From Cyclobacteriaceae bacterium (GTDB lineage: Bacteria > Bacteroidota > Bacteroidia > Cytophagales > Cyclobacteriaceae): a stretch of 64,000 nucleotides of DNA. The DNA is taken from assembly GCA_015488485.1 (NCBI GenBank), contig WFNR01000064.1:6916-70915 (forward strand), written 5' to 3'. Every line of letters begins with the position of its first letter. Position 1 is the stretch's first letter. Both the position numbers and the translations under genes were made by a program. Shown one piece after another: positions 669 through 9,995 of this stretch. The notes beneath the pieces were generated by a model. The model made no database searches. It was given only the letters and a program-made list of their open reading frames with translations, and was not told where the DNA came from.

Positions 669-1928
669 ATGCCAATTGATAAGAAACAAATCATCGAAAA
701 AGAAAGTGCCGTAGTAGATGGCATAGAGCTCACTGCCGACTGGAACCGGATGTTTGAGCAGCGGGTGATGCATTACGAAGACAGCGATGCCCTCGATAAG
801 GTACGGGATACTCCCGGTGCCGAGTCGATAGGCTATTGCTATCAGTGCGGCCAGTGTGTGCCGGTATGTCCGGTAGATGCCGTGGGCGAATACGGCCCTT
901 TCAGGGTGTACAAGGACTTGCTGATAGGTAAAGACCTGTTCAAGTCGCCCGAGTTGTGGAAGTGTACTACCTGTATGCAGTGTCTGCGGGTGTGCCCCAA
1001 GCAGGTGGATATGATCCAGATTATGCCGGCCGTACGCGAAGAGGCGGTGATGGAAGGCGATGTACCCGAAGAGCTGCAGGAGGCTTTTGAGAATACCTTT
1101 GAATACGGCAACCCGCTGGGTGAGTCGCAGCGCAAGCGGGCCGACTGGATACAGGAGACCGGCTCGAATGTGCCGATTATGAAAGAGAAAAAAGAAGCCG
1201 ATATCCTGTGGTTTGTGGAGTGCTATCCGTCATACCATGCGCGTGGCAAGGATGCCAGCGCGGCCCTGGCCAAGATTCTCAATGCCCTGGGTACCGACTT
1301 CGGTGTGCTGGGCACCGAAGAGAAGTGCTCCTGCGACTCGCAGCGCCTGGCCGGTGAGGTAGGGCTGTTCGAAGAGTTTGCCGAAGAGAACATCGCTACG
1401 CTTAAGAAGTATAAATTCAATCAGATACTGGTTACCGACCCGCATGCCTTGAATGCCATGCGCAAAAAATACCCTGAGTATGGTGGTAACTTCGATGTGA
1501 TTCACTACACCACTTACCTGGCGCCCTTGCTGGATAAACTGGATCTGAAGAACACCCTGAACTACAAGGTTACCTTCCACGATCCGTGCTATCTGGGCAG
1601 GCACAATGGCGAGTACGAGGCACCGCGTCAGATACTCAACGCCTTGCCGGGGGTTGAGCTGATTGAAATGGGCCGCTGCCGTGAGCAAAGCTACTGCTGC
1701 GGTGGTGGCGGTGGTGGCATGTGGCTCGATGGCTTCATGGCCGACCACGTAAGCGAGCGCCTGTCGGAAAACCGCATCAGGGAAGCTGTGGAAACCGGTG
1801 CAGACCTGCTGGTGGTTTGCTGTCCGTACGAGGTGTCGCGCTTCGAGGATGCCGTAAAATCAACCGGCAACGAAGGCAAGCTGCAGGTTAAGGATATTGC
1901 CGAGCTGATTGTGGAAGCAATGGGGTAA
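669..1928 (+). CDS. soluble HdrD/GlcF-like (Fe-S)-binding protein with two 4Fe-4S motifs and CCG cysteine-rich domains
   Basis: Ferredoxin-type motifs CYQCGQCVPVCP and CTTCMQCLRVCP. CCG-type motifs HDPCYLGR...CCGGGGG...CCPYE. The whole length aligns to the C-terminal half of the 7917..9995 product. Confidence 0.85.
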   Translation: MPIDKKQIIEKESAVVDGIELTADWNRMFEQRVMHYEDSDALDKVRDTPGAESIGYCYQCGQCVPVCPVDAVGEYGPFRVYKDLLIGKDLFKSPELWKCTTCMQCLRVCPKQVDMIQIMPAVREEAVMEGDVPEELQEAFENTFEYGNPLGESQRKRADWIQETGSNVPIMKEKKEADILWFVECYPSYHARGKDASAALAKILNALGTDFGVLGTEEKCSCDSQRLAGEVGLFEEFAEENIATLKKYKFNQILVTDPHALNAMRKKYPEYGGNFDVIHYTTYLAPLLDKLDLKNTLNYKVTFHDPCYLGRHNGEYEAPRQILNALPGVELIEMGRCREQSYCCGGGGGGMWLDGFMADHVSERLSENRIREAVETGADLLVVCCPYEVSRFEDAVKSTGNEGKLQVKDIAELIVEAMG

Positions 1929-1975
1929 GAATGGCAGATTGCAGATTGATGATTGATGAAGGATGATCTGTTTTT
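1927..1975. repeat. dispersed intergenic repeat, copy A (core AAGAATGGCAGATTGCAGATTGATGA), left flank of the four-helix-bundle gene
   Basis: Near-identical core found at 10686-10722 and 24511-24547, and a related one at 37935-37960. Confidence 0.7.
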
Positions 1976-2344
1976 ATGAATAATGTTGAACTTGAGCGCA
2001 GATTAATTGATTTTGCCCTTATGATAATAACCATTGTAAAATCGATGCCTGAAGATTTGGCTGCTAACCACCTGGCCAACCAGTTGGTGCGCTCCGGTAC
2101 ATCGGTGGCATTGAATTATGGCGAGGCACAAGGTGCAGAATCAAAAAGGGATTTTATTCATAAAATGCGGGTTATCCTTAAAGAATTACGTGAATCGTTG
2201 ATTTGCTTACAATTAATTTTAGGAGCAAAACTTTATGGAAACCAGGACAGCAAGTTGGTGAATCGAGCCAAAGACGAATGTAACCAGTTGGTTTCAATAT
2301 TTGTAGCAAGCATAAAAACAGCCGGGAAAAATCTAAATTCATAA
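1976..2344 (+). CDS. four-helix-bundle protein (23S rRNA intervening-sequence protein family)
   Basis: 122 aa. Family-typical stretch NQLVRSGTSVALNYGEAQGAESKRDFIHKMRVILKELRES. Visibly more AT-rich than its neighbours and flanked by repeat arms. Confidence 0.8.
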   Translation: MNNVELERRLIDFALMIITIVKSMPEDLAANHLANQLVRSGTSVALNYGEAQGAESKRDFIHKMRVILKELRESLICLQLILGAKLYGNQDSKLVNRAKDECNQLVSIFVASIKTAGKNLNS

Positions 2345-2370
2345 GTCTTACATCATAAATCATACATCAT

Positions 2371-7800: not shown

Positions 7801-7811
7801 TAACAGATGGT

Positions 7812-7876
7812 TAAGGGGCTGAGTAAATGAAATATTTATTGACAAGAACTTTCATTTGCTACGGCCCCTTATTTTA
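7812..7876 (+). other. long intercistronic stem-loop between etfA and the membrane Fe-S oxidoreductase gene
   Basis: Outer stem AAGGGGC (7813-7819) pairs with GCCCCTT (7864-7870). Inner stem AAATGAAA pairs with TTTCATTT. Followed by ATTTT. Confidence 0.4.
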
Positions 7877-7916
7877 ACCTGCTTATAACCAACCTGATAA
7901 CCTAAACCTGTACACT

Positions 7917-9995
7917 ATGGAAACCCGAGAAATCTTTCGTCATTTCCCGTTGTTGCTGCAAATTATTTTTTATGTAGTAGCTTTCTCCACCATTGGGGTA
8001 TTTATTTATGGTTTTTACCGCAGATACAAAAAATACCGCAAGGGTCGCGATGCCGAGCGCTTTAACAACCTGCTGGCCCGCTTTGGCAAAGCGCTGGCTA
8101 TGATGGCCAGGCATTCTACCATTGCCAAGCGCGATAAATATGCCGGTTTTGCCCACTGGCTTATCTTCTGGGGCTTTGTGGTGTTGTTTATCGGTACGGT
8201 AATCGTAGCCCTCGATCATGATTTTTTACGTTTTCTGGGCATTCACCTGCTGCAAGGGAAATTCTACCTGGGTTTCTCGGTCTTCCTCGATGTCTTTGGG
8301 GTGCTGTTTATCCTGGGCTTGTTTATGATGATGTTCAGGCGCAGCAAGAAGCCCCCGCAGCTCGATTATACCCGGGCCGACAAGTCGGCTACCATAGACC
8401 GCAAGGGCTTTGTAACCGATGATAAGATATTTCTGTGGCTGTTGCTGCTCATTGGTATCACCGGTTTTATTATAGAAGGCGCCCGTATTGCTGCCGACCG
8501 CCAGGTGATGGATCTGTCGTTCGAGCGCTGGTCTCCGGTAGGCTGGGCCATTGCCGATGGCATCGACAAAGCCGGCCTAACTGCCTCGGCCAACAATATT
8601 CATTTGTACACCTGGTGGTTTCATGCGGTAATCGTGTTGTTTTTTATTGCCTATATTCCGTACTCTAAGGCCATGCACATGCTGGTGGACTTTGCCAACC
8701 TGATGTTTAAGGATGAGATGGCCGCCAAGCGCCTGCCACGCGTATCGGAAGAGCGCCAAAAGGTGGCGATGGGTTATCAGAAGCTGGAGGATTTTACCTG
8801 GAAAGAACTGCTCGATATGGATGCCTGTACCAAGTGCGGTCGCTGCCATGTGGCCTGTCCGGCCCAGAATGCCGGTACTCCGCTGTCACCGCGCGACCTT
8901 ATCCTTGACCTGCGCACCTATGCCAACGACACCAATGGCGTGGCCGAGTGGTTTGAGCAGAAAGATACCAGTGGCAAGCAGCCCAAGACATTGGCCGGTG
9001 GCGTTATCAGCCAGGATACGCTGTGGTCGTGTACCACTTGTATGGCTTGCGTAGAAGCCTGTCCGGTAGGTATTGAGCACCTCACTCATATTGTGAATAT
9101 GCGCAGAACGCTGGTAGAGGAGGGCGATATGGAAGATATGCTGATGGATACGCTGGCCAATATCGGTGACTACGGTAACTCCTTCGGTCAATCGGAGCGC
9201 ATGCGCGCCAAATGGACTAAGGAATTGGACTTCCAGATCAAGGATGTGCGCAAAGAAGAAGCCGAATACCTGTGGTTTGTGGGCGACTATGCCTCTTACG
9301 ATGCCCGCATTCAGGGGCTGTCACAGAAAGTGGCACGTATCTTCCGCAATATTGGCGTTGACTATGGCATCTTGTACGATGGCGAGCGCAATGCCGGCAA
9401 CGATGTGCGCAGGGTAGGGGAAGAAGGCCTCTATGAAATGCTGGTAGAAGACAACATGGCTGCTTTTGAAGAGGCCAATTTCAAGGAAATATTCACTACC
9501 GATCCGCATTCTTACAATACCATTAAAAACGAATATCCTGACTTCGGTGGTGAGTACAGCATATACCACTATACCGGTCTGCTTCTCAAGCTGCATAAGG
9601 AAGGCAAACTGAAGTTCAACAAAAAGCTGGACTATAAGGTAACCTACCATGATCCGTGCTACCTGGGACGCTATAACGGTGAGGTAGATGCACCGCGTCA
9701 GTTGCTCGAGGCTATGGGCGTAACCCTGGTGGATATGCCGCGCTGCAAGGAGAACTCCTTCTGCTGCGGTGCCGGTGGTGGCCGTATCTGGATGGACGAC
9801 TCCAAGATGGATAAGCGTCCCAGTGAGTTGCGTATCGAAGAAGCCTTGTCGCTGGGCAATGGCGTAGATCATTTTATTGTGGCCTGCCCGAAAGACTACG
9901 CCATGTTTACCGATGCCGTGAAGACCAGCGGCAACGAAGGCAAGATGGTGGTGAAGGACATCATTGAGCTGGTGGAAGAGGCCATGGGTGTGTAA
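7917..9995 (+). CDS. membrane-anchored Fe-S/CCG oxidoreductase (EMO-like ETF:quinone oxidoreductase, DsrMK/HmeCD-like fusion)
   Basis: The N-terminal ~270 aa has several hydrophobic helices. These are followed by CTKCGRCHVACP and CTTCMACVEACP, then CCG motifs HDPCYLGR...CCGAGGG...ACPKD. Confidence 0.85.
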   Translation: METREIFRHFPLLLQIIFYVVAFSTIGVFIYGFYRRYKKYRKGRDAERFNNLLARFGKALAMMARHSTIAKRDKYAGFAHWLIFWGFVVLFIGTVIVALDHDFLRFLGIHLLQGKFYLGFSVFLDVFGVLFILGLFMMMFRRSKKPPQLDYTRADKSATIDRKGFVTDDKIFLWLLLLIGITGFIIEGARIAADRQVMDLSFERWSPVGWAIADGIDKAGLTASANNIHLYTWWFHAVIVLFFIAYIPYSKAMHMLVDFANLMFKDEMAAKRLPRVSEERQKVAMGYQKLEDFTWKELLDMDACTKCGRCHVACPAQNAGTPLSPRDLILDLRTYANDTNGVAEWFEQKDTSGKQPKTLAGGVISQDTLWSCTTCMACVEACPVGIEHLTHIVNMRRTLVEEGDMEDMLMDTLANIGDYGNSFGQSERMRAKWTKELDFQIKDVRKEEAEYLWFVGDYASYDARIQGLSQKVARIFRNIGVDYGILYDGERNAGNDVRRVGEEGLYEMLVEDNMAAFEEANFKEIFTTDPHSYNTIKNEYPDFGGEYSIYHYTGLLLKLHKEGKLKFNKKLDYKVTYHDPCYLGRYNGEVDAPRQLLEAMGVTLVDMPRCKENSFCCGAGGGRIWMDDSKMDKRPSELRIEEALSLGNGVDHFIVACPKDYAMFTDAVKTSGNEGKMVVKDIIELVEEAMGV

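Follow-up and report, generated by a model that had tools for sequence, protein, structure and literature searches.

A type II sHdr-LbpA gene cluster with nested lipoate-assembly genes in a member of the Cyclobacteriaceae

The DNA considered here is a stretch of 64,000 nucleotides from a Cyclobacteriaceae bacterium (Bacteroidota; assembly GCA_015488485.1, contig WFNR01000064.1, positions 6,916 to 70,915 of the forward strand), and this whole stretch is referred to below as the window. Positions 3-9995 very probably (probability about 0.9) constitute the downstream half of a single cluster of about 17 kb, which codes for a type II sulfur-oxidising heterodisulfide reductase-like (sHdr) system with its lipoate-binding protein LbpA, predicted from the literature to oxidise sulfane sulfur to sulfite in the cytoplasm. 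The locus is a new example, in Bacteroidota, of a system already described and not a new module.

Gene set and assignment to type II

The passages of Tanabe et al. (2024, PMC11094781) that define the sHdr types distinguish type I, with the gene order shdrC1B1AHC2B2, from type II, with shdrC1B1AHB3-etfAB-emo, the latter being scored when shdrC1B1AHB3 and etfAB are syntenic. The same passages present sHdrB3 as sHdrC2 fused to sHdrB2 and able to bind one non-cubane cluster only, and TusA and DsrE proteins are described as delivering sulfane sulfur to the sHdr-LbpA complex. At the present locus the genes shdrC1, shdrB1, shdrA, shdrH and shdrB3 follow one another directly in assemblies of the same sequence, from which the upstream part is taken, and etfB, etfA and emo stand in the same cluster on the same strand (Table 1). 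By the published definition, that is shdrC1B1AHB3 syntenic with etfAB and accompanied by emo, the locus is therefore a type II sHdr. The sHdrB3 fusion contains one complete CCG set of cysteines, and the accessory sulfur transferases TusA, DsrE2 and a 126-aa DsrE protein are encoded in the cluster. An LbpA with a lipoyl lysine and with N- and C-terminal cysteines is present as the upstream 155-aa protein; the 148-aa carrier encoded in the window is not of this kind.

That the operon extends beyond base 1 is shown directly by shdrH, which the window edge truncates; this gene ends 42 nt before shdrB3. The upstream genes were read by exact-sequence look-up of the 419-aa sHdrB3 in public assemblies, and the protein was found on the NCBI contig JALSYN010000157.1 (GCA_027059845.1), on two ENA scaffolds and on a Logan contig. 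The locus taken from JALSYN010000157.1 (L001; loci are designated by L numbers throughout) is 100% identical to window positions 1-11928, and the three public assemblies, the NCBI contig and the two ENA scaffolds, match the window at 100% identity where they overlap with it. Beyond window position 1, JALSYN010000157.1 extends for about 15.4 kb only, so the window does not lie wholly on that contig; ParE-like and TrpB proteins encoded farther down the window are indexed on another contig, of 80,158 bp. In L001-L003 the order upstream of base 1, in the same orientation and over 9.3 kb, is arsR-tusA-dsrE2-lplA'-orf82-dsrE-lbpA-shdrC1-shdrB1-shdrA-shdrH. The sHdrA is a homologue of the protein of sulfur oxidisers and not of the long methanogen HdrA: it aligns over its full length with the sHdrA whose crystal structure is known from Hyphomicrobium denitrificans (6TJR, 349 aa; E 1.9e-93, residues 5-347 against 3-342), whereas methanogen HdrA proteins match it over the core only. 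Homologues of sHdrH, with 27-61% identity, hold the same position between shdrA and shdrB3 in more than 20 loci.

A preliminary description of the window, made from the sequence alone, had noted that genes for HdrA, HdrB1 and HdrC1 were missing from it and could lie upstream of base 1, and had advised looking there for shdrC1B1A-H, dsrE and tusA. These genes were all found directly upstream in the identical assemblies, together with a second lbpA and with arsR. Two readings had been offered, namely the distal half of an sHdr-type system in a Bacteroidota genome, which the full type II gene set in the identical assemblies bears out, and a reduced, undescribed and autonomous module working without sHdrA, sHdrB1 and sHdrC1, in which the carrier would be re-oxidised by the CCG protein and electrons would pass through the electron-transferring flavoprotein (ETF) and EMO to menaquinone. 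The latter agrees with the absence of HdrA, HdrB1 and HdrC1 genes from the window taken by itself; however, shdrC1B1AH and a canonical LbpA stand immediately upstream in every assembly that contains this sequence. The reduced module is not supported; it is highly improbable, and for this locus the upstream shdrC1B1AH context rules it out.

Several points weigh against the assignment to a sulfur-oxidising type II system. For the upstream half the evidence comes from other assemblies with identical sequence and not from the window's own record, and within the 64 kb of the window no sox, sqr or sulfite-handling genes were found. The 148-aa carrier has no cysteine at all, hence it lacks the two that are the hallmark of LbpA, and the scores of the two radical SAM proteins lie just under (LipS1, by 1.3 bits) and clearly under (LipS2) the curated NCBI cutoffs. 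Finally, type II systems are without biochemical characterisation, so that the electron flow to menaquinone has the standing of a proposal; its source is said to be the work of Kümpel et al. from 2024.

Comparison with described systems places the locus close to the 'Group III' arrangement of Actinobacteria and Firmicutes, which comprises Hdr-like genes, two or three LbpAs and EtfBA (Cao et al. 2018, PMC6067878). As in type II or 'Group III' clusters such as those of Sulfobacillus acidophilus and Acidimicrobium ferrooxidans, all the defining genes occur in one co-oriented cluster, and further common traits are a B3 protein with a single intact CCG set, TusA and DsrE, several LbpA-type carriers, extra lplA-like genes, and genes of the lipS1 and lipS2 type. 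The locus differs from described type II hosts in belonging to Bacteroidota, a phylum that is not named for type II in the text passages of PMC11094781 considered here. In the cultured type II organisms, moreover, the third lbpA and the maturation genes lie at a separate locus, as shown by locus tags, whereas here the lipoate block is nested in the cluster. With the type I systems of H. denitrificans, Thioalkalivibrio and Aquifex it shares a full-length sHdrA homologue, C1, B1, H, LbpA, TusA/DsrE and genes of the sLpl(AB)-LipS1/S2 type, but the sHdrB3 fusion replaces sHdrC2 and sHdrB2, for which pair it would stand in functionally, EtfBA and EMO are added, lipT is absent, and one carrier is without the LbpA cysteines. 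Among the Bacteroidota genomes tabulated by Tanabe et al. (2023, PMC10332631, S4 Table), 11 contain sHdr, 17 contain LbpA and 14 contain both LipS1 and LipS2; LipA accompanies the latter two in 14/14 and LipT in 0/14 genomes. At the present locus lipT is not present either.

The conservation of the gene order was followed by a pattern scan based on a B3 alignment, with one genome per GTDB species, which gave 80 loci, and 20 cluster proteins were mapped by tblastn. The same 18-gene order, with the lipoate block between shdrB3 and etfBA, occurs in L005, from a Lewinellaceae metagenome-assembled genome (46-88% identity per protein), and in L085 (577 kb) and L086, two metagenomic contigs found through the carrier. 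The named relatives of B3 and of the carrier belong to Cyclobacteriaceae, Flammeovirgaceae, Phaeodactylibacter and Lewinellaceae. The synteny of the lipoate genes with etfBA-emo, which the preliminary description had proposed to check, thus holds in relatives. In Actinomycetota (L019, L020, L023-L025, L088) the assembly genes are likewise nested between B3 and etfBA, and in KSB1, Planctomycetota, Calditrichota, Chloroflexota, Marinisomatota and an archaeal metagenome-assembled genome B3 is followed directly by etfBA-emo, the assembly genes being located elsewhere in the cluster. This varied placement across phyla indicates that a conserved gene set exists in a small number of arrangements, of which the nesting of the lipoate block is one.

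Lipoate assembly and the cysteine-less carrier

The block carrier-lipS1-slpl(AB)-lipS2 is, as far as its gene content tells, a dedicated lipoate-assembly pathway. The order lipS1-slpl(AB)-lipS2 beside an LbpA-type carrier corresponds to the experimentally validated pathway of LbpA maturation (PMC10332631; PMC6067878). In that pathway sLpl(AB) ligates octanoate or lipoate to LbpA, and sulfur is inserted at C8 by LipS2 and at C6 by LipS1; in H. denitrificans both LbpA and sLpl(AB) are essential for thiosulfate oxidation (PMC10332631). By analogy, the ligase of the present cluster would load the carrier lysine with octanoate or lipoate, after which the two sulfurs would be inserted by LipS2 and then by LipS1, an order taken from the literature.

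The best NCBIfam family of the first radical SAM protein is, by a wide margin, LipS1 (NF053742: score 228.7 bits, cutoff 230 bits, E 9.5e-68, covering 4-268 of the 268 profile positions) and that of the second is LipS2 (NF053743: score 191.6 bits, cutoff 270 bits, E 1.9e-56, covering 1-288 of the 292 profile positions). The CxxxCxxC radical SAM motif is present in both, and orthologues of LipS2 are found at the equivalent place in every type II locus. The ligase encoded between them can be aligned over nearly its full length with the ligase 1VQZ (residues 6-334), with conservation of the catalytic-lysine motif GKKIAG; its fused domains and the order lipS1-lpl-lipS2 are those expected for the sLpl(AB) pathway. 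The assembly system of the archaeon Thermococcus kodakarensis, LipS1/LipS2 with LplA-LplB, is similar in that two radical SAM proteins, here with LipS1 and LipS2 as their best families, stand beside a lipoate ligase and the target has the GcvH fold, but here the ligase is a single fused polypeptide and the context is sulfur oxidation and not the glycine cleavage system.

A second LplA-like protein, the product of lplA', is encoded in the upstream half and is conserved across the type II clusters of several phyla. Since it keeps the RRxTGGGAVY and catalytic-lysine motifs, it looks like a ligase and not like an amidotransferase. The small orf82 that follows was considered as a detached LplB domain and this was rejected, as it matches no family and its resemblance to the window ligase's C-domain is not significant (E 0.10); ORFs of the same kind, 81-83 aa long, recur in the Bacteroidota-type contigs L085 and L086.

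The 148-aa carrier deserves separate consideration. Its K69 aligns with the lipoyl lysine of GcvH, and the profile searches speak against a housekeeping GcvH, as it stays below the equivalog cutoff of TIGR00527 (81.1 against 115.85 bits) and also below that of NF002270 (99.1 against 117 bits). Two cysteines, located near the N- and the C-terminus, are strictly conserved among LbpAs and missing from GcvH (PMC6067878). Among close relatives of the carrier, 121/130 are likewise without cysteine, with an invariant (I/V)EAEKHVG motif and a KGWIAQ tail, and the further matches to a profile seeded with carriers from other phyla gave 82/88 without cysteine and 0/88 with an N- and C-terminal cysteine pair. 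In a neighbour-joining tree the cysteine-less carriers form one clade beside two true GcvH and apart from the two-cysteine LbpAs; this distance tree includes only two partial GcvH references and has no support values, so it is weak evidence. The subfamily is conserved in Bacteroidota, Actinomycetota, Chloroflexota, KSB1 and Marinisomatota. In every locus examined its gene adjoins slpl(AB), lipS1 and lipS2, and at least 13 loci with it were examined, all of which are type II shdr clusters, with shdrC1B1AH present wherever the contig reaches far enough. This last result also speaks against a reduced module.

It could be supposed that the cluster serves housekeeping only, the GcvH-like protein, the ligase and the radical SAM genes keeping lipoate for glycine cleavage or for 2-oxoacid dehydrogenases, EtfBA-EMO working in beta-oxidation, and the adjacency of the two sets being incidental. 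The position of the carrier subfamily in the distance tree, nearer to the two true GcvH than the two-cysteine LbpAs are, agrees with such a role, and in Syntrophus and Mycobacterium EMO and EtfAB are known to work together with acyl-CoA dehydrogenases. Against it stand the two GcvH cutoffs that the carrier fails, the lack, in cluster and window alike, of any gene for GcvP, GcvT, an E2 or an acyl-CoA dehydrogenase, and the fact that in at least seven phylum-level lineages the block is firmly tied to shdr clusters. Moreover, all 14 of the Bacteroidota with LipS1 and LipS2 also have LipA (PMC10332631), which indicates that the canonical lipoate pathway is separate. A purely housekeeping function is thus very hard to credit, and the type II sHdr-LbpA assignment is retained.

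Within this assignment it is tempting to speculate that the 148-aa carrier is not a sulfur-carrying LbpA, and that type II clusters would contain a third, cysteine-less class of lipoyl carrier with a role distinct from that of the sulfur-binding LbpAs. In one variant it would be a scaffold or hub on which lipoate is built, to be relayed to the two-cysteine LbpA or LbpAs by the second LplA-like protein; in another it would act as a dithiol/disulfide shuttle, re-oxidised by sHdrB3 and feeding EtfAB-EMO. The absence of cysteine as a property of the whole subfamily, the separate clade, and the constant neighbourhood of slpl(AB)/lipS1/lipS2, where the second LplA-like protein without C-domain is also conserved, are consistent with this idea. 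So are the source data of Cao et al. (2018, PMC6067878), in which Acidimicrobium and Sulfobacillus have a third lbpA next to their maturation genes, and also additional lplA genes; for both organisms this lbpA is missing from the source list of their Figure 3, and no discussion of its lack of cysteine was found. The ligase-like rather than amidotransferase-like motifs of the second LplA-like protein count against it, as does the slender basis of the tree. The proposal is a tentative one, and we regard it as rather unlikely; the carrier may serve as a hub of assembly or as an electron shuttle for sHdrB3, or it may be just one more LbpA.

Proposed electron output through sHdrB3, EtfBA and EMO

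The sHdrB3 protein contains two cubane [4Fe-4S] motifs (C57/60/63/67 and C99/102/105/109). Its C-terminal CCG set is complete (C307, C337, C343, C344, C384, C385), and the N-terminal CCG half is degenerate, with C185, C220 and C222 only. One intact set is what the published description of sHdrB3 leads one to expect (PMC11094781, in the passages cited above). The emo product matches the EMO/EtfD of Mycobacterium smegmatis (9OJN, E 7.6e-84) in both its membrane and its cytoplasmic part. It has five hydrophobic segments, two CxxCxxCxxxC motifs and the CCG-set cysteines C581, C610, C616, C617 and C657, and its His80, His236 and His254 align with conserved histidines that are haem ligands according to a recent EMO structure paper. 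A five-helix NarI-like haem b domain, two cubane motifs and an HdrB-like domain are thus combined in one protein encoded beside etfAB, as in other EMO/EtfD proteins. The EtfAB-EMO of Syntrophus aciditrophicus and Mycobacterium (9OJN) resembles the present one in the three-domain EMO, the haem-ligand histidines, the two cubane motifs, the CCG-type domain and the adjoining etfBA, but differs in its genomic partner, which at the present locus is the sHdr complex and not acyl-CoA dehydrogenases. Following what is inferred for type II systems, electrons from sulfur oxidation would leave through sHdrB3, EtfAB and EMO to menaquinone.

In the loci L029-L047, from Verrucomicrobiota, Ignavibacteria, Acidobacteriota and Planctomycetota, an HdrA-like gene was found beside etfB-etfA-emo and the gene for a B3-like protein (about 45% identity). 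In L030 (6132-16835), the only one of these loci that was annotated, a gene for a full-length HdrA of 664 aa precedes those for the [NiFe]-hydrogenase proteins MvhD, MvhG and MvhA, and hypF lies upstream. By sequence comparison B3, EtfBA and EMO seem to be a portable output unit, reused in these loci with a different input module. Such portability would also suit the reduced module discussed above; however, no carrier or lipoate genes were detected by tblastn mapping within 10 kb in L029-L047, the hydrogenase-linked variant included.

Layout of the cluster, its surroundings and significance

The features of both halves are collected in Table 1. The preliminary description had recognised eight co-oriented, tightly packed genes on the + strand at 669-9995, and the ORF listing and profile searches confirm their coordinates and family assignments; overlooked were a ninth co-oriented gene, for a 122-aa protein between shdrB3 and the carrier gene (1976-2344), and the open-edged reading frame at 3-626. 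Along the nine genes of 669-9995 the gaps are 47, 26, -16, 50, 7, 32, -4 and 116 nt.

Table 1. Features of the sHdr-LbpA cluster, from the upstream half to the end of the transcription unit; positions are those of the window unless a locus is named
Feature	Position	Strand	Remarks
ArsR/SmtB regulator	upstream of window, L001-L003		
TusA	upstream of window, L001-L003		PF01206, 92.8 bits
DsrE2	upstream of window, L001-L003		NF047629, 210.3 bits against a cutoff of 210
lplA', second LplA-like protein, 364 aa	L001 3866-4960		LplA catalytic domain without recognisable ligase C-domain
orf82, 82 aa, unknown family	L001 4932-5180		overlaps the lplA' gene
DsrE protein, 126 aa	upstream of window, L001-L003		
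canonical LbpA, 155 aa, GcvH fold	upstream of window, L001-L003		C9, C146, lipoyl motif VESGKWVGP
sHdrC1, HdrC-like, 236 aa	upstream of window, L001-L003		
sHdrB1, HdrB-like CCG protein, 395 aa	upstream of window, L001-L003		
sHdrA, HdrA-like flavoprotein, 352 aa	upstream of window, L001-L003		
sHdrH, 246 aa	between the HdrA-like and 419-aa genes, L001-L004		without Pfam match; C-terminus is window 3-626
shdrH, 3' part	3..626	+	no stop codon from base 3; runs off window start; full protein 246 aa in identical assemblies
shdrB3, soluble HdrC-HdrB fusion (HdrD-like), 419 aa	669..1928	+	two CxxCxxCxxxC and CCG domain; no hydrophobic segment
four-helix-bundle protein, 122 aa	1976..2344	+	TIGR02436 / PF05635 (23S_rRNA_IVP family)
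GcvH-fold lipoyl carrier, cysteine-less LbpA-like subfamily, 148 aa	2371..2817	+	lipoyl lysine K69 in IEAEKHVG
probable lipS1, radical SAM lipoyl synthase component	2802..3764	+	NF053742; C60xxxC64xxC67
slpl(AB)-type lipoate:protein ligase	3815..4966	+	LplA catalytic and LplB-type C-domain fused; PF21948 and PF10437
probable lipS2, radical SAM lipoyl synthase component	4974..6062	+	NF053743; C57xxxC61xxC64
etfB	6095..6853	+	best solved relative Methylophilus ETF beta subunit 1O94_C, E 5.8e-37
etfA	6850..7800	+	ETF and ETF_alpha domains; best solved relatives 6FAH_A, 5OL2_A, 1O94_D
emo, ETF:(methyl)menaquinone oxidoreductase (EtfD), 692 aa	7917..9995	+	five-helix NarI/HdrE-like haem b domain fused to HdrD-like Fe-S domain
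terminator-like hairpin and U-run	about 10014..10052	+	-25.3 kcal/mol, z = -5.2, 0/200 shuffles fold as well

The gene for the 122-aa four-helix-bundle protein occurs in the near-identical assemblies L001-L004, with a scaffold gap interrupting L002, and is absent from L005, L085 and L086 although the gene order is otherwise identical. It therefore appears to be a lineage-specific, recent-looking insertion, and its product is probably not part of the sHdr system. Missing or shifted genes between shdrB3 and the carrier gene in L002 and L003 had the appearance of polymorphism; they are due to gaps filled with N in the scaffolds, and the variation is not real. The hairpin with its U-run after emo, spotted by eye and then confirmed by folding, marks the close of the operon. 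A scan of positions 1-11300 for sigma-70 promoter and terminator consensus sequences gave counts at chance level (15 against 12.0 +/- 4.1 and 13 against 11.6 +/- 3.8) and was not used.

The flanks of the cluster vary among relatives. In L085 (1-967) and L086 (149-1285) an extra radical SAM gene for a protein of 363-378 aa, with a weak Pfam match, is situated directly upstream of the arsR-type regulator; in L001 this position is taken by a divergent DUF3179 gene. NrfD-type membrane and Fe-S subunits flank the type II clusters of L086 (position 1, - strand) and L087 (16069-20435), the latter flank also including a molybdopterin oxidoreductase catalytic subunit. These subunits may belong to a polysulfide-, thiosulfate- or tetrathionate-reductase-like complex or to a Qrc/ACIII-like one, and may bear on the sulfur substrate or on the quinone link.

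Downstream of emo a non-coding spacer of 1.2 kb (9996-11210) contains several GC-rich palindromes, no convincing ORF, and a 46-bp tandem repeat of 3.7 copies with 98% matches (10180-10349). An Rfam scan returned only two tRNAs (24622-24860, - strand) and nothing in or near the cluster or in this spacer. The annotation of the region from 11 to 64 kb was searched for gcvPT, lipA/B, lpd, sox, sqr and soe, and only housekeeping genes were found. The genes of 11211-64000 include Ppx/GppA, tandem Usp, a ParE/ParC-type topoisomerase and a SpoU methylase, an RDD/SpoIIM/DUF4129/MoxR/DUF58 block at 24.9-31 kb, a complete trpEGDCFBA operon (44730-51044) and a tryptophan 2,3-dioxygenase (57110-58144); DUF5686 with CarboxypepD_reg domains, typical of Bacteroidota, is also encoded in the window.

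A specialist would not be surprised by this locus, which reveals no new kind of module. It adds a complete and compact type II sHdr-LbpA cluster from Bacteroidota, where the route has so far only been counted in survey tables. The all-in-one operon, in which a regulator, sulfur transferases, both carrier classes, two ligase paralogues, LipS1 and LipS2, EtfBA and EMO are assembled, is a convenient template for heterologous reconstitution, and the cysteine-less carrier subfamily provides an experimental handle on the use of lipoate in type II systems.

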